A stretch of 60,225 nt of DNA, filler included, from Basidioascus undulatus (lineage: Eukaryota), in the NCBI GenBank assembly GCA_000826855.1. It is 4 parts of 4 records of this genome, joined end to end, with 100 filler letters (N's around TTAATTAATTAA, not from the genome) between each part and the next. Parts side by side here need not be neighbours in the genome. Positions count along the whole stretch, not along the records: positions 30,291 to 60,225 come from JTLS01000119.1; 3 more parts are not named here. One strand, 5' to 3'. Position numbers and translations under genes: made by a program. The notes beneath the pieces are model-generated. The model was not told the DNA's origin. It did no database searches and was given only the letters and a program-made list of their open reading frames with translations. This document shows, piece by piece, positions 10,110 to 56,857 of this stretch (its first letter is position 1; the number at the start of each line of letters is the position of its first letter).

Positions 10110-12178
10110 GGGGTCACCGAACTCGAGGACAAGCTCGCCGCCGCCACGGACGCGTCGTCCGCATCCGCGTCCAAGATCGCCGAGCTCGAGGCGACCATCT
10201 CGGCGCACGGCGACCTCGCGACGCGCGGCGCGCAGCTCGAGAACGAACTGGCCGCAGCGCAAGAGCAAGCCTCTCGCGTCGCCGAGCTCGAGCGGCAGCT
10301 GGCTGAGTCGTCCGCGCACGCCGCGCGCGTCGCCGAGCTCGAGACGCAACTCGCCGAGCTGAGCGGCACGAGCGCGACGTCGAGCGCTGCGCACGCGCAG
10401 GAGGTCAAGCTCAAGGAGGCGACGATCTCGGCGCTGCAGGCGGAGATTGCCGAGCTCGGCGCGCTCCGGGACGAGAAGGCCGGGCTCGAGGCGCGCCTCG
10501 CCGCGGCGGAGAAGAGCGTGCGCGACGGGGAGGAGGCGCGCGAGGAGCTCCGCGCGCTTAAGGACGCGCATGGCGCGCTCGTGCAGAGCGCGAAGGACGA
10601 GAGGGAGGCGCTGGAGAGCGCGAAGGGCGAGCTGGAGAAGCTCCGCGCGGAGAGCGAGGCGCTGGAGAAGATCCATGCGGCCGCGCTGGAGGAGGTCCAG
10701 GCCAAGGTGCGGGCTGCGGAGGAGGAGGTGCGTTGCGGACTTCATTCTTCCCGCTTGTTTGATGATGGTGCCGTGGCTCATGCTGATGCGATTGATGAGA
10801 TTGACCAGGCCGCGAGCAAGGCGTCGGACCACTCGGCTGCGCTGTCCGAGGCGGACGAGCGGAGGCTCAAGGAGCTTGAGGAGCTGCGGGTCGACGCAGA
10901 GCGCAAGCTAAAGGAGGCGAGGGAGGAGGAGCTCACGAAGGCGGAGGAGATCCGGAAGGAGGCGGAGAGGCTCAAGGAGCAACTCGATGTGCGTATGCGC
11001 CGCTTTTTCCCCGAGTTTCACGTCGCCAAGTGCTGACTCTTAGTGTGCCTCGCAGACCCTCGAAGCCCGTAACGCCGCGGCGCTCAAGGCCGCGTTCGAC
11101 GACGCCAAGAACGAGGCGGGGTACGCGCACTCGCTCGAGTTGCAGGAGCTGCGCGGCGAGTCGGACGAGCTCGTCAAGCAGCTACGCGCAGGTCACGCGG
11201 ACGAGCTCGCCAGCGTGCGCCGCGAGGCGGAGGCAAAGCTTGCCGACGAGGTGCGCCGGCTAGAGGGCGCGCTGCGCGAGAAGGACGTCGAGAACGGCGC
11301 GCTCCGCGGAGACCTTGGGAAGGCGCGCGAGGCGCTCGTGCAAGCTACTAAGGAGATGGAGCGGGTGAGTGCGGGTAAGGTGAGAGGGAGGGAGAGGATG
11401 CAGAATGCTGATGGGGTCTGGGCTGGGGTGCTTCGACAGCTCAACGAGGAGCACGCCAACACCAAGGCAGCGCTGGACGAGGCGCGCCAGGCCGCAGCAT
11501 CCGCGTCCGCCACCGCCGCGGGCGCGTCGCCCGCCGACGCGGAGCGTCTGGCCAAGCTCGAGAAGGAGCTCGCGAACGCGCGCGAGGAAGTCGCGTCACT
11601 GCAGGAGGTGCACACCGTTTCGTCGCAGTCGTTCGCGGACCAGTTCGAGTCGCTCCAGGCTGCGCACGCGCGCGAGCTCGAGGACTCCGCCAAGGCGCGC
11701 GTGGAGGAGACGACGCGCCTGAAGAAGGAGTGGGGGGCGACGCGCGCGCAGCTCGAGCAGGCGGCGCATGACCTCGCGCGCGATGTCGAGTCGGAGCGCG
11801 AGGCCCGCAAGCAGGCCGAGGCGAAGCTCGTTGCCGCCCGGACGTCTGCATCTACCACCCCGCCCCCCAGCCCCGGCGCGACGGAGCTCCTCCACAAGGC
11901 GCACAACGCGAAGATCGCGGAGCTCGAGGGCGAGCATGAGCGCGCGCTCAAGGGCCTGAGGGAGCAACTCGAGGAGGTCAGCAAGGAGAAGGAGGAACAC
12001 GAGATGCTTTTGCGCTTTGCGGGGAGCGAGAGTAGGTGAACTTTGGCTCTGATGCGGAGGAGTATCTCGCCGTACATGAGCTGACTTTGGGCCGTTTGAT
12101 TGGGCAGAAGAGGAGCTGGAGCAGGAGATCGCGAACCTCAAGTCTCAGCTCCACCAGCACCAGGGCGTTGCGGCGTAA
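10110..12178 (+). CDS. Long coiled-coil protein of unknown identity; 5' truncated by the gap
   Basis: Ala/Glu/Lys/Leu-rich heptad sequence (ELEDKLAAA..., AELERQLAE...). Introns at ~10728-10808, 10989-11056, ~11364-11439 and 12032-12107. Last exon KEELEQEIANLKSQLHQHQGVAA* (TAA 12176-12178). Confidence 0.8.
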
Positions 12179-30290: not shown

Positions 30291-30543
30291 CTTCTTGGGG
30301 GGCGGCGGGGGCTTTGGCTGACCCTTGCCGTGCTTCTTGGACGCCTTATTCTTCTTGGACTGCTGCTGCTGCTGGGGGTGGCCGGCGCCGTCGTCCTTTT
30401 CTGTGGCTTTGCGCGCCTGCTTCTTGCGCGCTGCATCCCGGGCGGTCGCTCAGTGGGCTCGGGACGGGAGGGAGAGGGACGTGGTGGATGGAGAAAGACG
30501 CACTGCCAGCGGACGCGGAGCTCTTTCCTTTGGCCTTGGCCAT
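30291..30543 (-). CDS. RKR1: 5' end of probable E3 ubiquitin ligase listerin (Ltn1/Rkr1); truncated by the gap
   Basis: One GTGCGT...CAG intron gives MAKAKGKSSASAGTRKKQARKATEKDDG...KKHGKGQPKPPPPPKK. This matches my recollection of the basidiomycete listerin N-terminus (GKSSASSATRKKHARKA...). No catalytic domain is visible. Confidence 0.55.
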
Positions 30544-43138: not shown

Positions 43139-43498
43139 CCGGTAGGAGTTCAACGAGCGTGGAGCGTGCTCTATGTAATGTCGAGATTGAGGGGTCGATT
43201 GGCAGGCGAAGGAAGACGTAAACTGCCGCGGGAAGACGTGGGTAGGCGGCGCTTGCTTCCGGAGCGGCGCTCCCGGCCCGCAAGTCTCCGAGGCTCCAAG
43301 CGGGACGCCGAGCGGGCAATAACTTTCCAGGACACTTTGAGACGATAACGATACGAGTAAATAATCGCACTGATGTAATTTTGGTCCATAATTGATTGTA
43401 ACAGGGAGCTGGTCTGGGAAAACAAAAAATGGTTGCCTAGGTGCGAAGGACATTTGGGAAAGGGATTCTGAATGGTCCAATGTCAGCGTCTTCCAGAA

Positions 43499-43576
43499 GC
43501 TTGGCTGGGGTAGTGGTAACCTGGGTCGTTGCCACTAGAATTCGACCCGCCCCGTGTTCGATTCACGGGTCAAGCA
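43499..43576 (+). tRNA. tRNA-Gly(GCC) with a 7-nt intron
   Basis: Acceptor stem GCTTGGC/GTCAAGC plus discriminator A. D arm GGGT-AGTGGTA-ACCT. Anticodon arm GGTCG-TT GCC A[CTAGAAT]T-CGACC. T arm CCGTG-TTCGATT-CACGG. T-rich tract downstream. Confidence 0.9.
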
Positions 43577-43860
43577 TTATTTTGTATGGTGTCTCTCAAC
43601 ACCAGAGTTTACTTTTTGTACTTTATTTCATCCCTGCCATTTTTTATGTGAAGTGACTTGATATTTTGCCGGCACAAATCACTTAGGAAGCGCTACTGCA
43701 AAGTGTGGACGGACAAAATCCGCAACGAATTCATGCTGGGCCGAAAGCAATGCGAAATCTCACATTTCCCTTTCCTTGCCGTGCGTCTTCTCCGCCCGCC
43801 TACCCCCTTCCCTAGTCCTCCTCTCCTCACCCGCTCGTTCTCGAACTTTTTCTGGGGACG

Positions 43861-46098
43861 ATGCCCTCTCACGTCATTTTCGAGTCTAGCGCTGGCTACG
43901 GCCTGTTCGTCGTCGAGCAGGCCGAGGAGATCGGCGCAAAGACCAAGGCCGTCCAGGAGCAGATCCAAGACTACGCAAAGTTCTCCAAGATGGTCACCCT
44001 CAAGTCCTTTGCCCCCTTCCGCGACGCCGCCCACGCCCTCGACAACGCCAACGCCGTCAGCGAAGGTTAGACTGGCTGTTTTCCCGGGGATATCGGGCAG
44101 GAGGGCGGGTGGGAGGCGAGCGGGAGTGGAGCCGGGCGAAGGGGGAAGGAGCAAGATGAGGGACTGGTGCCATGGTCAGACTGCGAATCTGACACTTCCC
44201 CTACACACCCCGCTAGGCATTCTCCACGACCACCTCAAGTCCCTCCTTGAGCAGAACCTCCCCCGCGGCTCCAAGTCCGGTGTCGTCCTCGGTGTCTCCG
44301 ACCGCGCCCTTGCGACCTCGATCAAGCAGGAGCTCGCGATCGAGGGTGACGTCTCTGACCTCTCGCTCGAGATCATCCGCGGCGTCCGTCTCCACGCCGA
44401 GAAGCTCCTCGGCGCGTTCCAGGAGGGCGACCTCCGTCTTGCGCAGCTCGGTCTCGGTCACTCGTACTCTCGTGCGAAGGTCAAGGTACGCCTCTTTTCC
44501 TCGCAGTCCTGTGAAGAGGGTGTTTGTGAGACTGAGAGAGTGTTGGGACGTGACAGTTCAACGTCAACCGCTCCGACAACATGATCATCCAGGCGATCGC
44601 CCTCCTCGACCAGCTCGACAAGGACATCAACACGTTCGCGATGCGCGTGCGCGAGTGGTACGGCTGGCACTTCCCGGAGCTGGTCAAGATCGTGCCGGAC
44701 AACCACCAGTACGCGAAGGCTGCGAAGCTGATCGGCGACAAGTCGACGCTGTCGGAGGAGCACCTGCCCGCGCTGACGGAGCTGCTCGACGATGACGAGA
44801 CGCGGGCGCGCAACGTGCTCGACGCGGCGCGCAGCTCGATGGGCACCGATATCAGCCCGATCGACCTCATCAACATCTCCAACTTTGCCGAGCGCGTCGT
44901 CAACCTCGCCGACTACCGCAAGAGCCTCCATGCGTACCTCCTCGAGAAGATGCACCTCGTCGCGCCCAACCTCTCTGCGCTCATCGGCGAGACCGTCGGC
45001 GCCCGCCTCATCAGCCACGCGGGCTCCCTCACCAACTTGTCCAAGTACCCCGCGTCTACCGTCCAGATCCTCGGCGCTGAGAAGGCGCTCTTCCGCGCGC
45101 TCAAGACCAAGGGCAACACGCCCAAGGTGCGCCTCTCTTCAATCGCTTTTCCAAGCCCTTTACCACTGACGCATTGCTGCCTTACCCCAGTACGGTCTCA
45201 TCTTCCACTCCTCCTTCATCGGTCGCGCCGCGGCGAAGAACAAGGGCCGGATCTCCCGCTTCCTGGCCAACAAGGCTACCATCGCCTCCCGCATTGACTG
45301 CTTCACCGGTACGTCTTCGTTCCCGACCACAACCTCCTTCCGTATTGCGTTCTTAGCCTCGCCGTGCCTTTCAGACAACCCCACCACCAAGTTCGGCGAG
45401 GCGCTGAGGGGTCAGGTCGAGGAGCGGTTGGCGTTCTACGAGGTGCGCTTCCCCGCTCCCGACATCCTTCTCACCTCGACAGCGGCGCTGACATCGCTTG
45501 TCATTTGTAATGTTGTACAGACCGGCGCTGCCCCGTCCAAGAACAGCGATACGATGCGCAAGGTCCTGGACGCGCTGGCGCTGGACGAGGACGAGGGGTC
45601 GGACGACGAGATGAAGGTGGACGAGGAGAAGGCGGAGAAGAAGGACGAGAAGAAGGAGAAGGTGCGTTTCCCCCGTCCCCCATCTCCCTTCTCTCCTGGA
45701 AGCTGGACTGACCTTGTACGGTACCGTTGATACAGAAGGACAAGAAGAAGCGGAAGAGCGAAGCGATGGACGTCGACGAGCCTGCAGAGGCTGCGGAGAC
45801 GCCCAAGCTGTCCAAGGAGGAGCGCAAGGCAGCTAAGAAGGCCCGCAAAAGTGCTGTTGCTGAGGTCCGTTCGCATTCCCTCCTCACCCCTCCATTCCCT
45901 CGTTCAAGATTGAATCTGACCTGGTTGTGATCCGCAGCTCGAGACCCCTGCCGAAGCGACGCCGTCCAAGAAGGAGAAGAAGGAGAAGAAGGAGAAGAAG
46001 GAGAAGCGTGCGTCTTCTCTCCCCCTTCCCTCCCTCTCCACTCAATCCCCCAAGACTGACCTTGTCTCCGTCGCAACACAGGGAAATCCATCGCATAG
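43861..46098 (+). CDS. NOP56: Nucleolar protein 56 (box C/D snoRNP core protein)
   Basis: Motifs: [123 protein letters not shown]-repeat tail. Ends RKSIA*. Confidence 0.97.
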
Positions 46099-46529
46099 AA
46101 CATTCCGTCTCACCATCCTCCTTCCTTCCCTCTGCTCAAACCTCCTCTTCTCCCGTCCTTTGCTCGTTCTCATTCTTTTCGCTGGCCTATTCTTCGCTTC
46201 GATGCTTGTATAACAATTTCCGTTACCTTTTTTTTCTTTTGCACTGCTTGATATATCTACTGCACGCCTCTCTCACCGGTTGAACACCTGACAACTTTCT
46301 GTTTGATCCGACGGGCATTTGCTTGATGCCGCACTGGAGCTCCGACTACGTCGCAACGACAAATTTGACTCTGCAAATTCCTATGGTATCCGCGCTCCTG
46401 CCATGGACGCAGCAAGAAAATAACGACGGATCATGCCGGGTGTGTTCAAGTGTGTTCGCCGCGTCTCAAGTCTTCCGTCAGCCACTTGGGCGCAAGGAGC
46501 GGTGACACTTTCCTCTCTTCCCGCCACCA

Positions 46530-47057
46530 TCACGACGAACCTACCTTTACTCGCGATCCGATCCTGCCACTATGCCTCTTTAGTTTGTTCGCCAGGCCAT
46601 CGGAGGGAACGACCCGCGCACTGGTGCACCTCTCGTGCGCGTTGCCCTGCCGCGCAGCGATGATGGCGCCGTCGGCATCCTCTTTCCCGTGCTCGATAGC
46701 TTCGAAGTCGTCCCATACTGCGCTGCGCTGCTCGATCATTCGGTGAGAACTCGGCAGCTGCTCATGCAAGGGCTGGAGCTCGACGAGGTCATTATCATCA
46801 TTCGCCTGCTCGATCGGGTACTCGTCATCCGGCAGGGAGCTCGCATAGGCCTTTTGCAGTTCGACGGCCTCTTCCCGCAGAACGACGATCCTTCGCAGGA
46901 GCCGCCTGAACTGCTCATGCTTTGGGCAGTGGACGATACCGAAGACCGCGTAGAGGAGTTGATGAAGAAGGCTGCTGCTGGGTTTGAGAGGTCCGCCATT
47001 GCGACGCTGGGCATCGTCACTTGCGTCTTTCCTGTCGTCCTCGACATCGGATCTCAT
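46530..47057 (-). CDS. Possible hypothetical protein, unrecognised
   Basis: 175-aa ORF with helical, charged composition (FRRLLRRIVVLREEAVELQKAY). No motif recognised; an antisense ORF of similar length also exists. Confidence 0.25.
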   Translation of the reverse strand: MRSDVEDDRKDASDDAQRRNGGPLKPSSSLLHQLLYAVFGIVHCPKHEQFRRLLRRIVVLREEAVELQKAYASSLPDDEYPIEQANDDNDLVELQPLHEQLPSSHRMIEQRSAVWDDFEAIEHGKEDADGAIIAARQGNAHERCTSARVVPSDGLANKLKRHSGRIGSRVKVGSS

Positions 47058-49134
47058 CGGCGCGTTCCCCTCAAAACCTGCTTGACCATTTCAGCAGACG
47101 GTAATGTTACAGCTCTATGCGCACAAAGGCTCACTGACCGTGTGCACCTTTTCAATCCCAATCCAACCGCCCTCGCTACCAGCGTCGACCTGGCATGATA
47201 TGCTCGCCTGCACCGGTACATCTATTGCTTGACAGAAAAGCCGGTAGAGACATGGCTCGCATTCGACTGTAATCGCCTCCCGCCGCCTCCGCCTCCTGAT
47301 GATCTTTACGCGTGCGCTGCTGCGGAGTGTTCGCTTGCGCGAGCCGCGCAAACCCTGCCTTGAGCTTCTAAGACGTGCAGCTATCTTGTCACCAGCACTC
47401 AGCTATCACGGATAACTTCAAGAGCCTTATCGCTGGACGAGATGTTGGCACACGGTCCGTCGTGGCGAGAGGTATGCGGTGCACACTGCAACTCGATGTG
47501 TCAGCGGTGCGCGGGTGCGGCTATTGCTCCTTGGCGCATTAGCGCGAGGACTGGCAAAAGGACAAGAAGGTTCGCCAAGTTGTCGTTAATGGCCTCTGAG
47601 GAATCGCATGCGCTGACGGCCGGTAAACAGTGGTGCAAAGCAAACCGCCTCCCTTTAGCTGAACAAGTTGGCTGGGTGTCTTCGATGGGTGCGCTGTTGA
47701 CGACTGAGAATATATCAAGCTTGTGATAGACATTTTTGGAAGCTTGGCATTCAGTTGAAGCGGAAGTCTTGCTCGGAAGGCCCGAATCAACCTCCACCGC
47801 GACTGCGCCTTGTGGTGCGGTGCAGGCTTATGGTGGATGCAACCTATTCCACGACTCTGAACAGTGATACTGTTGGCAGCTTTGGAGATTTGAGATGGAT
47901 TGCAAAAGATGCGGTGGTCCTTCCTGGCTTTGGGAACGGCTGCGCTGATTTCGCAGAGAGACCGGTTACGAAGCTACAAAGCGGTAGTCGCTGGGCCCAT
48001 CGCAAGAGGTGCAGACTCGAACTTTAACAAAATGCGGTGAGCATGTCTGGTGCACTCATGCCTCGAACACTCGGAGACAGACAGAATGGATGGCCCTTGA
48101 ATGACCCGAGCCTAAAAGTCCTCCAAAGAAACACATCCGAGCTGCCCTCCTCTCCAAGGGGAACGTCTGCGCACCTATCCACCCAACTAGCAACTTCCAA
48201 AAGGTGTCACCGCGCTGTCCAAACCCAACCACGCTAGTGCGCTTGAGAACTCCTCGACGGACGACGGCGTATCACGCCTTTCTTCAGGTCGCGCGTGTGC
48301 GCTGAGCATAGCAGCTCGGTCGACTGGAGCGCAGGGGGGAAGATGTGTATGTATATCTGTGCGTTTTCACTCCGCAAGTCAAGTGAGCAATTGAGCTGTA
48401 CGGCAAAGATCGAGCAACATCCACTCCCAGAATCTGACTTGCCCTGCACACGGTACCACGAGCACAGGAATGTTACACCCAGCTGATGTGACGAGCGCAC
48501 CCGCGCGACCTCGAAGAAGGGATGACATCGTCCCCCGTCTGGAAGTTCTCAAGAACATTTGTGATGTTATCTCGGATGGAATGGAGAGCTTTGGCAGCTC
48601 GGCCCCACGATTGCATGTCAAACAGCTCGCGGCCGTCGAAAGCCATACATCTTAAACAATCAGAGCTACGAGCCGCATTTAGTTGAGAAATATCAAAAGC
48701 GTTGTTTTCAAACATTCTCAGTCTTCTCATAATCCTCCTTGTGGTCATCGCTGTGCGCAGTTTTGGAACACCCCTCCTACTGTTTCTACTCGGCCCGCTC
48801 CGATATCTGACCAACACTAGTACTGGCGGCTTCTGGCAGCTTTTCAGTTTTCAGCTTGGCGCGGTGTCTAACCGGAACTGATATGAAACATCCTGCACGA
48901 GTAGGCTGCGTTCTCTTTCTGTTCTCCTGCCGTCACAATTGTTTCCCAGGATGTTCACACCACACCCCAGAAAGCTTATGCAAGTCTTCGCGTGCCCCGA
49001 ACCCTTTGCAACATCACCCACCACCACGTCAGCGAGAAGACCTGCTACACTTGCCAAAGGCTAGTTGGTCTGTAAAGTAGCACGAAAGAGGCATGTCGGT
49101 GCGGAATGTTGAAAACTCACAGAGCCGACTACCT

Positions 49135-49485
49135 TCAGTACCACGGACCCGGGTAAGGGTAAGGCGGCCTCGGGAAGGGCGGGTAGTGCGGGAACGGTGG
49201 GCGGTAGGGAGGATACCCGCCGTAGGGAGGCCGCGGGTAGGGGCCGGGCAACGGCGGGTGGTAGGGTGGGTGGTAAGGCGAACGGAAGGCACCGCCAGCC
49301 GGTGCAAACTGCCGCGCGTGCAGGTCCGGGTCCGAGTGCTCACCGTCGTCCTCGTGAAAGGGGTACGCGACGGGGTCGCCAGAATCATGGCGGGCGCCGA
49401 GGTCGTCCGTGTCCGGCGTGGGACCAGCGAGGCCGAGATGAGCGGCAAGTGCAACGAGGACAAGGAAGACGGTGCGGTTCGCCAT
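49135..49485 (-). CDS. Small secreted prepro-protein (116 aa) with a Pro/Tyr/Arg-rich C-terminal peptide
   Basis: Single exon, CACCATGG start context. Signal-peptide-like MANRTVFLVLVALAAHLGLA, then acidic segments ending DLGAR and DLHAR, then QFAPAGGAFRSPYHPPYHPPLPGPYPRPPYGGYPPYRPPFPHYPPFPRPPYPYPGPWY*. Confidence 0.8.
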   Translation of the reverse strand: MANRTVFLVLVALAAHLGLAGPTPDTDDLGARHDSGDPVAYPFHEDDGEHSDPDLHARQFAPAGGAFRSPYHPPYHPPLPGPYPRPPYGGYPPYRPPFPHYPPFPRPPYPYPGPWY

Positions 49486-49543
49486 GGTGATGGGGGAACT
49501 ATTGCCAAGTGCTGTTGTGGATTGAGAGCGTCGACAAAGTCTG

Positions 49544-49549
49544 TATATA
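49544..49549 (-). promoter_or_regulatory. Putative TATA box of the Pro-rich secreted peptide gene
   Basis: TATATA about 60 nt upstream of the ATG at 49485. Confidence 0.5.
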
Positions 49550-50564
49550 TCCCTTTTTCCAAGCTCCGACAGAGCTGCTGCAGCGCTTGGCAGCGCGACG
49601 GGTGCAGTGTGATCCATACATGTTGAAAGCATTGCTCTTCGTCATGTTCACAGTTCAATCCACCGTTCCCGTCTACAATGACTTCTTGTACTAGACGGTG
49701 ATGCATGTTGCACATGTTCAAGGCTGACACTGCGAAAGCAGGGCCACGGGTCGAGTCTATGTGCATCACTCTCCGTGGCTGTCAGCTTGGCAACCACCGA
49801 TCGATTGGCTACTAGGAGGCCCCTGTATGTCCGCGGAGGCTGAGCCTGCACATAAAATACTGGCACCCAGATGCTGGAGCAGCGACCTCTGAGCATGCAC
49901 GGGCGAGCACGGGCTGGTCGCGTCTCTAGGTTTGCTGTCCTGGTTTGCCGATCTCTTCTGCTCGATTTGTCGGTCTATTGTACTCGAACATGGACTGAAA
50001 GCATATGAAAGGCAATTAAGACCCAAGAATTGTACGAGTCGGTTGAGATTACCGAGCTTGCTCTATGCTCATGCGAGTGCCGAATCAGGCACCTTAGCCC
50101 CTTGGCAGCGAAGCCGCTTGCCTTTCCCTCGGCGTTGCGGCGTCGGAACGACCATGTACGAACTATCGAACTTTTGACGGGAACAGTAAATAGAGTTAGC
50201 GTAGCTCATCCAATCCGGATATTTGCTAAGTCACATCCTTGCAGCCGCTGCAGGAAGCTCCTTCTCGCCCGCCCGACCATCTGTGCGCTTACTCCCACAG
50301 ACCACGCCGATAGAGGCACAGTGAACAGCGTATATGATGGTCCGCGGGTACAGAAACGGTCAAAGTACGTAAACCAGGTCAAAGGGTCCTTCAGTGTATG
50401 TCAACCCAGCACAATCAGGAAAAAGGAAACAGATCGTAAGGGGGTAGGGTGTCGTCGAGAGGCGTCAGGTACATTATCGTAGCATTAATAAGTTAAAACG
50501 AGGAGGAGAAAATCGAATACGGAGTACAAAGCGCAGAAGTGAAGAGAACCACCGCATCAACCCA

Positions 50565-51365
50565 TCACACCTTCCACCGGGGCAGGCGTTCCCTGCCATC
50601 CTCCAGCTCCTCATCCCTCCCATGGCCTACTGCGGCCCCACGCCCCGAACGCAGCGAGCGCGTCGTCGGCGGTGGCGGGGTAAGAGGGTAGGCGTCTCGC
50701 TCCCCGTTCCCAGGGCTCGACCACGCCCGCGCTCGACGCCGACGGTCCGCCTGGTGCAGGCTCGAGGTCTCCGAGGAGTGCGCGTGCGAATGCGAGTGAA
50801 AATGAGCGTGGTGGGAGGGAGGGATGTCGACCACCTCCAGTCCGAGCTCAGGCTGCACCTCGTCCCTCCACCGAACCGTGCCCGTCCCCCGGCGCGGGTG
50901 AGTCCGGCTCTGCGTCTGCGCGGGCGGGCGGCCGGGGGAGAAGTCCTTATGCTCGTAGGGGTACTTCTCGTCATGGCCGAGAATGATGACGCGGCGCCCC
51001 GTCGTCGTGGCCGAGCGCGGGCGCGAGCGCCTGGCGGACGCGGACGGCGCGGGGTAGAACACCAGCGGCTCGGGAAACTTGAGGATATCGCTGAGCCCCG
51101 CGGGGACGGAGAACGACGGCCAGAGGCCTGCACCTCGATCGGCGCTGCTGCTGCCGTGAGAAGTAGAGGGAGTAGGCGACTCGCGGGTGGCGGAGAAGCG
51201 CGCGTAGAGCTTCTGGAAACACGCGTTCAGGCCCTGAGCGGAGAAGGTGGAGGAAGCGGGCGTGCGAGCGCGCTCGTGACGCTCGATGATGGTTGTGAGG
51301 GAGTCAAGCGCGGACGGAGAGGAATGGATCGAGGGAGACGTCGGGCGCGAGGAGGAGCGGCGCAT
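50565..51365 (-). CDS. Hypothetical low-complexity Ser/Pro/Arg-rich protein, single exon, ~266 aa
   Basis: Open frame from MRRSSSRPTSPS... to ...RLPRWKV*, GC-rich codon usage, pyrimidine-rich 5' leader. Overlapping ORFs in other frames lower confidence. Confidence 0.55.
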   Translation of the reverse strand: MRRSSSRPTSPSIHSSPSALDSLTTIIERHERARTPASSTFSAQGLNACFQKLYARFSATRESPTPSTSHGSSSADRGAGLWPSFSVPAGLSDILKFPEPLVFYPAPSASARRSRPRSATTTGRRVIILGHDEKYPYEHKDFSPGRPPAQTQSRTHPRRGTGTVRWRDEVQPELGLEVVDIPPSHHAHFHSHSHAHSSETSSLHQADRRRRARAWSSPGNGERDAYPLTPPPPTTRSLRSGRGAAVGHGRDEELEDGRERLPRWKV

Positions 51366-52455
51366 TGACGGAGGGGGGCAGCGGCCCTGCGCTGGAGGGT
51401 CGCAGAGAAGGCGAGCGGGGGGAAGGGAAAAAAATATAGAATGGTTGATAAAGATAACGAGATATGTATGCGCCCGCACTGCCAGCGTAGCGAGGCGAGG
51501 CGAGGCGGGGCGGGCGAGCAAGGAGATGGTGAGCCAACGACGAGCGAGCGGCGAGCAGGGGTCGGTTTGAATCTGCGGTCGCAGTTCTCGTTCAAAGAAG
51601 GGGAATAGAAAAATGATGTATGTTGGTCAGTCTCGATAAAAAATTTGTGAGATGGCTGACAGGCTAGCCAGCCAGTTCGACCAGAGTCAGTCCAGCTCGA
51701 GGAGGTCGGTCAGCACAAGCACACCCAAATGCTGAGTGAGGCTGACGCCAAAGCGCCTTTGACAGTGAAATCTGGTTATTGCGCTGTGAGTTGAGAGTGG
51801 AATTGATGCGAGTAGATAATCCAGCAACGGACGCTGTGAGCTGTATGTACCGAGCGATGCGGCATGTCGAAGCTCAACAGGCGCAGAGGCGTTGGGGGCA
51901 ATTTCGACGGCGCATGCCTGCCTCGAGCGTAAGGTTAAATGAATACCTTCTCACGGACCAATACTTTGGGGGATGCAGTTGGCAATGAAATAAAGGGTAA
52001 ACATTAATAAGTCCCTCGGGAGCCCGTCCACAGCTTCGTTCATGGTCGGGTGACTCGCACACCATCTCAGTCCCTTCCTTCCGGCAGCCAAGCAGCGCTT
52101 AAATGATGAAATGCATGACATGGGGCGTAGGACAAGGTATCCGGGTTGGCCTCAAACGATGCGAGGCAAAGTATGGTGTGGGAGCGGCAGGTTTGGGGGG
52201 GGGGGTAACATGTAACGAGAACAGGACAAAGCAAAGCGAGATGGAGACACAGGGAACAGGCACGAGTGTCGATCATTATACGAGAAGGAAACAGAGCAGA
52301 GCTCGGGATGGTTTTAGACGTAAAGGCGTAAGAGGACGTATAGTATTGGCGTTAAGAGTGTTGAAGTAGTGTATGCAGATGCGATTGTGGGAGGGCGGAG
52401 GGAGGAAGGAGGAAGAGTGGGGGCAATGCGAGATTTGGATGGGAATACGCGACGA

Positions 52456-55400
52456 TCACCGGATGAAAAGCGAGAGCACCTGCGCCTGGACGGCCTGCCA
52501 GAACGGAAGCTCTGGATGCGGGCCCATGCACGGCGCGCCGCCGAGCGTCGCGAGCGACGACTTAGACGTGCCCCCGACGTACGTGACGTCGTCGTCGTGG
52601 CTCTCGTTGCGGGAAGGAGCTGCAAGTGCGAGCGTGCGTCGTCAGCATTCTGCTGGGAACTTCAAGAGAGTGCAAGCGAAGAGAGACCCACCAAAGTAGA
52701 AGCCGGAGACGAGGACGAGGTAGCTGAGGATGAGGATCGAGCCACGGTAGTAGTTGCTGCGGCTCTCGGTCATGACGTAGGTGAGGAGACTGCGATGCGC
52801 AGGGCGGCGGCGATTTGTTAGAAGACGGCGCTGTAACTCAAGACGAAATAAAGGCAACGCACAAGACGGAGAAGATAAACGCAATCGCGTCCCAGCGGGA
52901 GAAGATGAGGCTGCCGAAAGAACAAGCGTTTGTCAGCTGCTGATTGCCTCCTCCGCTGAAGAGCCTCTGTACGTACACAAACACGTTGTCAGCGGGCGTC
53001 GCCGCGGTGCTGGTGAACGCCGAGATGGCGACCATGGCCGGGATCTGCAGCAAGCAGACCTGCAGCGCGTACGCGGAACCCTGCAAGCCGAAGTCAACAC
53101 GTCGTCTCGGTGCGGTAGAAAGGGAAGGAGAAACGCACGATCTCAATCGAGAGTGCAATGTTGCCGTTGATTGCGAACGACATGGCGTTCATGAACTCTG
53201 TCGTGTTGGGCACGAGCGCGAACAGCGTGATACCGAGGAACTTCTCGTCGATGCCCGAGCCCTCGAGGACAACGTCTACGACGTCGACAAGGATCTCTGT
53301 CCGCCATCGATACGCGGGTCAGCTATTTACGGTTACCCAAGACGCCCACGAGAGACGCAACGCACCGGCAATAGCAGCGTACAGCGCCGTGCAAGCGAGC
53401 AGCACGCTCGCGCTCGTGAGCCTGCTCCACTCGGGCGCATCGTGGCCTCCGTGGCCTTCCCCGCCGGCGCCATGGGCCGCCGCGTCGCCAGGCGCACCAC
53501 CGCCGCCGGTCGAAGCCGTGCGGGCGTGCTGCTGCTGGCGCATCGCGCTGGCCGTCGCGGCCGCGACGGCGCGGTTGGAGTCCTCGTGCGTCATCTTCTG
53601 CGGGAGCTGGAGCGTCGCGGCCTGCTGCTGCTGCTGCTGGGGCTGGTGGTCGACCGGCGACGGCTGCGTGCCAGTCGGCGCGACGGACATGCGGCGGTTG
53701 GCGGGGGAGACGGTGGACGTGCTCGGCCCGCCGAAGGCGACGGACTGCCTACTCCCGGCCGGCGCGGACGTGGGCAGCGAGCCCTTGTCGATGCGCTTGT
53801 AGACCGATGCACGCTGTGCCGGCGGAAGGTGGCCGAGCGCGCCCTGCGCGGCGCCGGGGCCCGTCGTGTCGAGGTGCTGCATCAGCTGCTGCGGGTTTTG
53901 CCAAATCTGTGAGGCATGCGTGCGGAGCGAGAACCAGAGGCCGATGAGGTACGACTGTTCATAAGGGAAGGCGAATGGGGAGCAGTGTCAGCTGGCGCGC
54001 GGAGTTTGTTGCACGCGAAGAGAAACGCACGAGGACGAGAATGGCCGCACAGAAGTACATGAGGTGCTTGACGTTCTCCTGGTAGAAGGGGTCGGTGTGC
54101 GGGTCGATGTGCTGGTAGTAGCACCGCTGGCAGCGCCACGGCTGGTCGCTCGGCTGCTCCTTCGGGCACCCGCGACAGACGAGCTGAGACTGTTACCCAG
54201 AGCCCAACGACTTCATTACTATGCGCGCGACAGGACACAACGCGGGACGAGCGCAGGCCAACGCACCGAGCCGTAGGTCTGGTAGAAGAGTGTGGGCGTG
54301 AGCGTGCCGATGATGGCCATGATGAGCATCGTGCTCGTGACGCCGGCGGACTTTGCGTTGAAGCGCTGCTCCTTCCTCTTGAGTGCGCCGGAGCACATCG
54401 ACGCGCCGGGCATGAGGAGGACGCCGGCGAGGAAGCTTCCGACGAGGGAACCCTCGACAAGATGGCTCTTGCCCTCGGCGAGCGCAAATGTGTACAGGAG
54501 GATCTCGATGATGGAGCCGAAGGTGGCGTTGATGACTGCGCCGACGCCGATGGACGACTGGGCCGAGATGGACGCGACGGCCATGCCGATGAAGTAGCTG
54601 AGGGGGATGACGGACGCGAGCGCGAGGACGAAGATGACCGCGCGGGAGGCGACGACGGCGAGGAAGCCGTGCTCGATGTGCCTGCGCTCGACGTAGGGGA
54701 GGACGACGAGCGCGTCGATGATGACGAGGAAGACGAGTGGCATGAGGTTGACAAAGAGGATGTTGACGCCGCCGACGGTGTACTTGAGGTACTGCAGCCC
54801 GCCCGCGCGGTACGTGCAGATGAGGACCGTGCTCGTGTCGCCCGTCTTGGTCGGGAGCGTCTGCCCCGCCGTCAGGCGCGCGACCTTGAACGTGCCGCTC
54901 GGGCTGCCCACGCCGCCGTTGCCGTTGTCGGCCTTGGTGCTCGAGCTCGCCTCATCCCCGTCTTCCTCCGCGCGGCCTGAGCCCTCCTCCTCCTCTTCCT
55001 CCTCCTCGTCGGGAACGAGGATGCGCGGTGCGCGCCGGAAGCGGACGTGGGTCGGGTGGCGCCAGAGGTGCTTGACGAGCGCAAAGAGGAGCTTGCCCAT
55101 GGGGATCGGGAGCGCGAAGAAGTAGCAGAGGAGTCCGACAGCGAGGAAGACGGGGCCGACGACGACTGTGAGGACAGTGTAGAACGCGATCCGCGCGGGC
55201 GAGACCTTCGACTCGGCGTCGTTGTCAAACTTCTCGCCCTCCGCCGCAGTCGGGGACACGGCCGAGCCGTTGCCCGCCGTAGCGCCGTACGAGTCGGGGC
55301 CCTTGCCCTTGCCGACGGGCGAGCCGTAGTCGATGAGGGACGTGCGCTCGTCGATGTGCCGTTGGAGGCCGGTAGGCGTGATCGTCTGCGTCTGTTCGAG

Positions 55401-56857
55401 CGGCGCGCCGGCGCTCTCGTCGTTCGGGGTGCTCGGCATGCGGATCGCCGTGGGCGGGCCGTTGTCGTCGTCGAACTTCCAAGCGCCCTGCGCCTGGCGC
55501 GGCGTGCGCGCGCCCTCCTCGTCGACGTCCTCAGCCGCGGCGCGCTCCGACTCGAGCTGGTCGAGCGCGCGGCCCTCGACGTACTTGCCGCCGAAGGGCC
55601 AGACAATGTACCAGCCGAGGCCAGCGAGCACCGTCGTCCAGGTGCCGTAGCGGCAGCCCTCGGCGACGTAGACGATCGCCGCACCGATCAGGCAGAGGAT
55701 CGAGAGCCACCAGCCGGCCAGGACGAGCCAGAGGACGTTGGAGAGCAGGAAGGAGGTCGTGAGCGCGGAGGGGACAGCGTGAAGAGCGCTCTCGGCAGCA
55801 CGGGTGACGGAGCGAGACTTTTTGTAGAGCGCGGGCTTCCAGATGGGAAGACCGAAGGGGTGCTCGATGTTGATGGCCTGTACAGCACCGAGGAGAACGC
55901 AGTGAGCTTCACGACCATAAACTTGTCGAAGCAGCAACTCACGTCCTGGCGGTCCTTGAGCGTAATGTCCTCAATTTCGCCCGACGTGTCGTCCTCCTCA
56001 TCTTCCTCCTCGTCGTCATGCATCTCCGGCTCGTTCCCGAGCTCGTCGGCCGGGCCCTCTAGGATCTCCGCCTCCTCATCGTCGCCGTCCCTGACCCTGG
56101 TCGACGCCCTGCTAGGCGCGCGATCATGCCAGTCGGACTCCTCCGCCTCGGAGAAGTATCCGTGCCAGGACTGGCCCTGCGCGACGCGGGGCGACGACGG
56201 GCCCGCGGTGCCGGTCGCGCTGGACGCGACGGACGACGCGAGCGACGGCCTGCGGACGTCGAGCTGCGGGCGGTTGGAGTTCTGGCGGGGGAACGTCGGC
56301 CGCTGCGGGTCGCCGAGCGGGCCGGGCTGGGGCGGGACGGAGAGGGACGAGTCAGAGAGAATGGACTGGCGCGCGCGCTCCTTCTCTTTCGCGCGCTTCT
56401 CCTTCTTGCGCTCGCGCTGCCGGCGGCGGATGAGCGCTTCGCCCCGGTCCTGCGGGACATCTTCGTCGTCGTCCACGCCCAGGTCGTCCTCGACGCGGCG
56501 CGAGCGCGGGGCAATGCGGCTGGAGGTCGCTGTGCGGGTGTGCGTGGACGACGGCGCGGCGGGGGGCGGGCGCCGGCCCTCGTCCGAGTCGTATGCGGAC
56601 TCGGCGGCGGAGGAGAGGTCGGCGCGTGAGGACGCGGTCGAGAGCTCGCGGCTGCGCTCGTGCGGGGTCAAGGTGGACTGGGACTGAGGCAGGGAGGACG
56701 GCGGGAAGGCCTTGGACGTCGGGCGCCCGCGAATAGTAGAGATGGGGGGTGCTTCGCGCGTGGGAGAGGGCGCGGCGGAGGAGGCGTGCGAAGGAGAGGG
56801 TGGGGGGTGGCCGGGGTAGCCGCGGACGGTGGACCCCGATGGGGTACGATCGACCAT
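52456..56857 (-). CDS. VNX1: Vnx1-like (CAX type II) vacuolar cation/H+ exchanger
   Basis: Motifs: EDITLKDRQD|AINIEHPFGLPIWKPALYKKSRSV, ICTYRAGGLQYLKYTVGGVNI, IGMAVASISAQSSIGVGAVINATFGSIIE, GHGGHDAPEWS, VPNTTEFMNAMSFA, GSAYALQVCLLQIPA, SNYYRGSILILSY. Ends LSLFIR*. Confidence 0.95.

Follow-up and report, generated by a model that had tools for sequence, protein, structure and literature searches.

A candidate single-exon gene for a pre-pro-peptide with a proline- and tyrosine-rich basic tail in Basidioascus undulatus

We analyzed a 60,225-nt stretch of Basidioascus undulatus DNA (assembly GCA_000826855.1; "the window"), which consists of four parts joined end to end with filler between them, and whose positions 30,291 to 60,225 come from JTLS01000119.1. 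Pfam scans of the window covered 18 + 78 + 100 ORFs, a procedure in which short exons may be missed. The domains found were M16 peptidase, 2-Hacid_dh, Nop, Na_Ca_ex/YccF, and one weak match to KCTD18_C (Table 1). The M16 peptidase, Nop56 and Na/Ca exchanger genes are made of many short exons, in agreement with a first-pass annotation of this DNA that had described most genes of this genome as intron-rich. Within a 7.4-kb stretch that lacks recognizable domains, the minus strand carries an ORF of 116 residues (49135-49485; ATG at 49485-49483, stop codon TGA at 49137-49135). The scanned ORFs beside it include no oxidase, methyltransferase, peptidase or tailoring gene recognizable by Pfam. Neither an Rfam match nor direct repeats were found in the interval 46000-53000, and a transposon or RNA gene was rejected on these grounds.

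Table 1. Coordinates of the ORF, its predicted parts and the domain-bearing genes of the window
Feature	Position	Strand	Remarks
TATATA box	49544..49549	-	64 nt 5' of ATG (-64)
Start context CACCATGG	49482..49489	-	ATG 49483-49485
Residues 1-20 MANRTVFLVLVALAAHLGLA, predicted signal peptide	49426..49485	-	heuristic and AlphaFold2 helix
Residues 21-32 GPTPDTDDLGAR, putative first acidic pro-segment	49390..49425	-	LxxR site LGAR (49390-49401) at end
Residues 33-58 HDSGDPVAYPFHEDDGEHSDPDLHAR, putative second acidic Asp/His-rich pro-segment	49312..49389	-	LxxR site LHAR (49312-49323) at end
Residues 59-116, Gln-initiated 58-residue Pro/Tyr-rich basic peptide	49138..49311	-	composition count, script
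Stop codon TGA	49135..49137	-	ORF translation
M16 peptidase	about 3.5-7.3 kb		several short exons, Pfam
2-hydroxyacid dehydrogenase	about 41.6-42.2 kb		several short exons, Pfam
Nop56	about 43.6-46.2 kb	+	several short exons, Pfam
Na/Ca-exchanger-type membrane protein	about 53.1-56 kb	-	several short exons, Pfam

The segmentation first proposed for the 116-residue ORF, a leader followed by two segments ending in D-L-x-A-R and then a 58-residue peptide (the 58-mer), was reproduced, and the TATATA element and start context reported with it were both located. The hand counts for the 58-mer (24 Pro, 10 Tyr, 4 Arg, 3 His, no acidic residues or Cys) agree exactly with a scripted count of P24, Y10, G6, F4, R4, A3 and H3, plus one each of Q, S, L and W; Asp, Glu, Cys and Lys are all zero. 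The peptide is 41% Pro, 17% Tyr and 26% aromatic, with a pI of 9.6 and a net charge of +4. It contains three x-R-P-P-[YF] units, two PRP motifs (residues 84 and 105) and a single Y-x-Y unit (residues 109-111). Pro follows three of the four Arg, and aromatic residues are spaced at i, i+3 and i+6 in Y88-Y91-Y94 and F98-Y101-F104. The 38-residue pro part (residues 21-58) has a net charge of -9 (-8.9) and a pI of 4.2, and both of its Arg share the D-L-x-A-R context. Two DNA runs span the ORF with zero differing letters, so its DNA sequence is sound.

In high-GC DNA, long open frames and Pro-rich translations arise by chance. The DNA at the ORF is 69% G+C and four overlapping frames are open there, each for at least 125 codons; the length of the ORF is therefore no evidence for a gene. 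These open frames fit a reading, rather unlikely in our judgment, in which the ORF is a chance product of GC-rich intergenic DNA between two real genes, and its leader, TATA box and motifs occur together by accident and stand out only in hindsight. Codon usage argues against it. When a codon log-likelihood model was trained on two exons with Pfam support (Nop and Na_Ca_ex), the ORF frame scored +34.2 bits versus -38 to -99 bits in the five other frames, which places it within the top 2.2% when compared with 16724 windows of 348 nt. An independently trained model, built from 752 codons of other Pfam-supported exons, gave +15.1 bits versus -41 to -111 bits in the other frames (top 3.3% of 23416 windows). 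Under both trainings the score is positive in the ORF frame alone, and it turns from negative to positive right at the ATG. Upstream of this codon, the in-frame stretch reaching to 49641 gives -39.8 bits with the first model and -49.9 bits with the second, so the coding signal begins at ATG 49485-49483. A 165-codon ORF starting from ATG 49632 was rejected on the same two scores for its extra part, which also includes the TATA box.

The coding signal is real but modest, since the score per codon (0.13-0.30 bits) is lower than that of held-out housekeeping exons (0.52-0.77 bits; with the second model, 0.13 bits for the ORF versus 0.52-0.56 bits for the two held-out exons) and the Pro-rich half scores -2.8 bits with the second model. 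Even the +9.5 bits that this half reaches with the first model is a value that a chance ORF could accommodate, as is the fact that 16% of stop-free 348-nt windows score as high as the ORF, although most of these windows are presumably real exons. The signal is carried mainly by the non-repetitive N-terminal half, where G+C at codon positions 1/2/3 is 0.83/0.45/0.78; by our own arithmetic the dip at position 2 lies about four standard deviations from uniform, and this fall to 0.45 is a further point against chance. All four Pro codons are in use in the Pro/Tyr motifs, and the sole DNA repeat that Tandem Repeats Finder detects on the ORF is 9 bp x 2.7 copies; the periodicity thus resides in the protein, not in the DNA. 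Mixed Pro codons without a larger DNA repeat point to constraint at the protein level.

Signals around the start codon bear on the same question. Across the 1646 ATGs of the window, TATAWA occurs at -120..-30 in 14 cases, and there are 13 MAMMATGG sites on the two strands; the two coincide at a single ATG, that of this ORF. A simple signal-peptide heuristic is passed by 3 of the 232 Met starts that are followed by 80 codons or more, including this one. If independence is assumed, our own arithmetic gives an expectation of about 0.0015 ATGs per window that combine TATA box, start context and leader, which argues against coincidence. We consider that the ORF is probably a real gene, most likely a lineage-restricted basidiomycete gene with a predicted single exon.

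Homologs were sought in several collections. Searches of the ORF protein against Pfam and against PDB sequences (both at E up to 10) gave zero matches, as did the ESM Atlas for the whole protein and for residues 59-116. A word-indexed protein search produced 34 candidates and zero matches at E up to 10, and none of the 330 pattern matches in metagenome contigs was confirmed. The single match from an exhaustive phmmer search of 1.84 billion representatives (E 2.4e-4, residues 17-57) is to a 657-residue tandem-repeat protein and was set aside as a repeat artefact. A tblastn search for a paralog within the window returned the self-match only; a candidate at 10594-10833 (E 8.8e-5 with composition correction off) was discarded as an off-frame Pro/Arg/Ala-rich translation with stops.

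Three controls help to interpret these blanks. A highly conserved Nop56 exon found Basidiomycota sequences at 79-87% identity, the best at 87% and none near 100% among the 120 matches listed. An adjoining 266-codon ORF gave zero matches among 7327 candidates, and exact look-up of five local ORFs in a collection of 15 billion proteins located none of them. The protein collections therefore lack both the source genome and its close relatives, and for that reason the blanks say little about homologs. A fast-evolving small secreted protein would be undetectable at such a distance, and "orphan" here equals "unsampled". Thus, the term "orphan" in the first-pass annotation has little weight. A chance origin would likewise predict the blank in every collection searched, and the absence of the ORF and three overlapping ORFs from the 15-billion collection, but missing homologs are uninformative here. 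More generally, "no homolog" tells little when a lineage is absent from the databases. The adjoining ORF itself (50568-51365, minus strand) is the upstream neighbor; it is rich in Ser, Pro and Arg, and includes a His-rich run (HHAHFHSHSHAH), and its codon score is positive but weak (+20 bits when taken over the stop-to-stop frame).

The ORF could also be a young proto-gene, born de novo where GC-rich DNA that once coded for nothing came to be transcribed and perhaps translated; its start would be leader-like and its function not yet settled. It is short, single-exon and predicted to be disordered, its codon signal is weaker than that of conserved genes, and relatives were found neither for it nor for the adjoining 266-codon ORF. 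However, poor sampling accounts for the missing relatives, and the organized features of the locus (TATA box, start context, leader, two sites of identical context, and a pro-piece and tail of complementary charge) are not expected in combination in a proto-gene. We regard this origin as improbable.

If the ORF is a real gene, its product is likely to enter the secretory pathway through the predicted leader. This has an n-region MANR (with Arg4), an 11-residue uncharged hydrophobic core and a c-region HLGLA; the latter places Gly at position -3 and Ala at position -1 ahead of Gly21, which fits the usual signal-peptidase rule. In a single-sequence AlphaFold2 model (pTM 0.19, mean pLDDT 67), a helix at residues 2-16 is the sole regular structure, and residues 21-58 are without secondary structure (pLDDT 54-58). 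The composition of the pro part is disorder-promoting (47% A/R/G/Q/S/P/E/K, plus Asp at 9 of 38 positions). Along the 96-residue post-signal chain, LGAR ends at position 12 and LHAR at position 38, with 58 of the 96 residues beyond the second site. A lone LxxR motif is frequent by chance; shuffling yields two such motifs in 0.12% of cases for the pro part and in 0.9% for the post-signal chain, and a recurring 4-of-5 pentamer ending in Arg occurs in 0.27% of shuffles, all of these being post hoc comparisons.

LxxR, with Leu at P4 and Arg at P1, has been described for fungal effectors as an extended Kex2 motif at which the pro-domain is removed (bioRxiv 10.1101/2020.05.27.120113; PMC8528282). 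As presented there, the motif was derived from SnTox3, ToxA and SIX1/4/6, and it defines the K2PP (Kex2-processed pro-domain) class of fungal secreted proteins. Arg at P1 and Leu at P4 of both sites fit the Kex2 motif, whereas Ala at P2 fits less well, as Ala is not among the favored P2 residues given in PMC8528282. The original proposal of a pre-pro layout with Kex2-type sites is thus borne out in its layout and its LxxR fit, with P2 Ala as the exception. By prediction, the ORF product has the features by which K2PP proteins are recognized in silico, namely a signal peptide, LxxR sites and a disordered pro-domain. In the K2PP effectors described (SnTox3, ToxA, SIX1/4/6), the pro-domain helps a folded mature domain (PMC8528282), whereas the mature part of this ORF is Cys-free and predicted to be unstructured, and its precursor has two sites, both carrying Ala at P2. 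None of the K2PP members shows sequence similarity to the ORF.

We propose that the 20-residue leader would mediate ER entry and be removed after Ala20, and that a Kex2-type convertase of the late secretory pathway would then cut after Arg32 and/or Arg58 at the two L-x-A-R sites. Cutting would free the disordered acidic pro-piece (net -9), which may neutralize the basic tail in transit, and yield the 58-residue peptide, devoid of Cys, Lys and acidic residues. N-terminal Gln can cyclize to pyroglutamate, and that of the 58-mer may do so. Its Arg-Pro bonds, which involve three of the four Arg, should withstand trypsin-like proteases. The chain would be extended and polyproline-II-like; as a polyproline-II helix has three residues per turn, aromatics at i, i+3 and i+6 could form stripes on one face. 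Outside the cell, such a 58-mer may serve as a protease-resistant binding peptide. We infer each of these steps from the sequence, and would give secretion and processing as proposed close to an even chance. A real single-exon, lineage-restricted gene that encodes a pre-pro-peptide is the best explanation of the locus as a whole, at a probability a little short of even.

Different products are expected if the ORF is a class-1 Kex2 precursor, in which activity would reside in short peptides liberated between the sites (the 12-mer and the 26-mer, or an N-terminal piece of the tail) that serve as Qsp1-like signals, or if it is an exon of a larger spliced gene; we consider both very improbable. 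Signals that mature from secreted pro-peptides are known in basidiomycetes, and Qsp1 is described as matured by a protease (PMC7537855). The class-1 Kex2 repeat effectors and RiPPs, as characterized in PMC8528282, resemble the ORF in having a secreted precursor with Kex2-type sites. Their cores are near-identical repeats, whereas repeated core peptides are absent from the ORF: its three segments (12, 26 and 58 residues) do not resemble one another, and the spacers differ except at their D-x-D-L-x-A-R ends. Class-1 and RiPP genes also have tailoring enzymes nearby, and none was found beside the ORF in the three sets of scanned ORFs; Pfam recognized no modification enzyme on the 78 ORFs (70 aa or longer) within ~4 kb or on the 100 ORFs (125 aa or longer) elsewhere in the window, a result to be read with the possible loss of short exons in mind.

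The best match to the Qsp1 11-mer of Cryptococcus neoformans (sequence from PMC5959073) starts exactly at residue 59, where 4 of 11 residues, including a GGA core, are shared with the N-terminus of the 58-mer (score 18). However, shuffled sequences reach the best score 31-38% of the time (P 0.31 and 0.38), which is not significant, and the Qsp1 link was rejected; Qsp1 is moreover an 11-mer, whereas the ORF product has 58 residues. For a larger gene model, inspection by eye revealed a GTCCGT located three codons ahead of the stop and, beyond the stop, a GTGAGT...CAG element, but the alternative donor is weak and would gain 13 residues only. The element after the stop is 51 nt long (49070-49120, minus strand), starts with GTGAGT 14 nt beyond the stop codon, ends with CAG and, again by eye, resembles a short fungal 3' UTR intron.

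Returning to a pre-pro-peptide that releases the 58-mer, several extracellular roles can be weighed. Animal proline-rich antimicrobial peptides (PrAMPs) are a class of interest as non-lytic antibiotics. Their definition, as given in Box 1 of PMC7736402, comprises at least 25% Pro and a net charge of at least +1, with the PRP motif as indicative, and the same source treats two further items as essential, that the peptide is antimicrobial and that its target is intracellular (DnaK or the 70S ribosome). All of the items that can be read from sequence are present in the 58-mer (24/58 Pro, or 41%; a charge of +4; PRP at 84 and 105). The earlier description of a PrAMP-type tail is therefore sustained for these items, but its term "cationic" was generous, because Arg makes up 7% of the 58-mer versus a mean of 19% in the known PrAMPs of that source. 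Abaecin, with a net charge of +4 and 6% Arg (PMC7736402), is close to the 58-mer in both respects. The "Xaa-R-P-P repeat" reported for Bac5/P9 resembles the three x-R-P-P units of the 58-mer, and PrAMPs such as the Bac5/P9-type cathelicidins and abaecin are described as arising, like the proposed product of the ORF, from a precursor with a removed pro-piece.

Other properties set the 58-mer apart from PrAMPs. In addition to its low Arg content, its 17% Tyr is atypical of the PrAMPs described in the sources consulted, whose producers are animals plus one plant case and none of them fungal, whereas the ORF is fungal. The 58-mer shows no homology to PrAMPs. Word searches of the literature found nothing on a fungal secreted, Kex2-processed proline-rich antimicrobial peptide, and nothing relevant by title or abstract on proline- or tyrosine-rich small secreted proteins of basidiomycetes; word searches of this kind are not proof of absence. 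Among extracellular roles we nonetheless favor that of a PrAMP-like antimicrobial or competition peptide, which on present sequence evidence would have a low probability. The stronger version of this idea, in which the 58-mer would be the first fungal PrAMP, masked by its pro-piece until secretion, directed, like animal PrAMPs, at an intracellular target in competing bacteria and invented independently outside animals, is unlikely. Should the peptide prove antimicrobial, fungi would have a counterpart of the animal PrAMPs.

Pro/Tyr-rich proteins are typical substrates of oxidative cross-linking. The 58-mer might therefore have a structural role, on the hyphal surface or in the matrix, where secreted phenol oxidases would cross-link its Tyr residues, or as an adhesive or polyphenol-binding coat. 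Its 41% Pro, 17% Tyr and 26% aromatic residues, its one Y-x-Y unit (109-111) and its lack of Cys suit such a role, as does the extended, unstructured AlphaFold2 model. Against it, the peptide is just 58 residues long, occurs as a single copy in the window and is without a tandem repeat; with one Ser and no Thr it has no O-glycosylated stalk, and both Lys and a hydrophobic C-terminal anchor signal are absent. We hold a Tyr-cross-linked surface or adhesive role to be unlikely too, although nearly as likely as the PrAMP-like one. A partner-directed effector role ranks below both of these and seems improbable.

Plant extensins and PRPs share with the 58-mer a secreted, Pro/Tyr-rich character and the Y-x-Y unit. 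They are defined by tandem repeats of Ser-Pro or of the Pro-Pro-Val-Tyr-Lys type, whereas the 58-mer has no Ser-Pro blocks (one Ser in all), no Lys, no Val, no tandem repeats and a length of 58 residues only. The suggestion that it mimics an extensin or PRP does not survive these simple comparisons.

The layout of the ORF is already known, and the unusual part is the unstructured Pro/Tyr-rich product; the locus, plausible as a pre-pro-peptide gene, does not amount to a demonstrably new system. To call the locus the best candidate for a novel system in the window, as was first done, was an overstatement for an unverified small secreted protein gene. If the gene is expressed and its product processed, the Kex2 pro-domain layout would be extended from folded plant-pathogen effectors to an unstructured, Cys-free Pro/Tyr peptide of a basidiomycete lineage that is poorly sampled. 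Fungal genomes encode many lineage-restricted small secreted proteins, and if the peptide is not antimicrobial, the ORF would add one more orphan to these.

Several further observations concern the surroundings of the ORF. Converging on its 3' end is a 64-codon open frame on the plus strand (48687-48878), with a strongly hydrophobic stretch and a codon score of +15.4 bits, which may be an exon of an unrecognized membrane-protein gene. A Lys/Glu repeat at 45920-46210 (plus strand) is probably the C-terminal tail exon of Nop56. On the exchanger side, a 583-codon frame (54222-55970, minus strand) combines a YccF inner-membrane domain (E 3.3e-9) with Na_Ca_ex (E 1.4e-6), and a further Na_Ca_ex exon lies at 53097-53318; the pairing of YccF with Na_Ca_ex is unusual for a fungal exchanger gene. 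Two dispersed repeats were also seen, one at 43496-43583 with a ~20-fold excess of contig depth (900 vs 45) and many contig ends and loose ends, and one at 47462-47571 that matches another contig with 14 differences. Pairs of 44-base N-runs at ~10-kb intervals (10010-10053/10066-10109, 20085-20128/20141-20184, and 30191-30234/30247-30290) are masked or withheld stretches, not biology.
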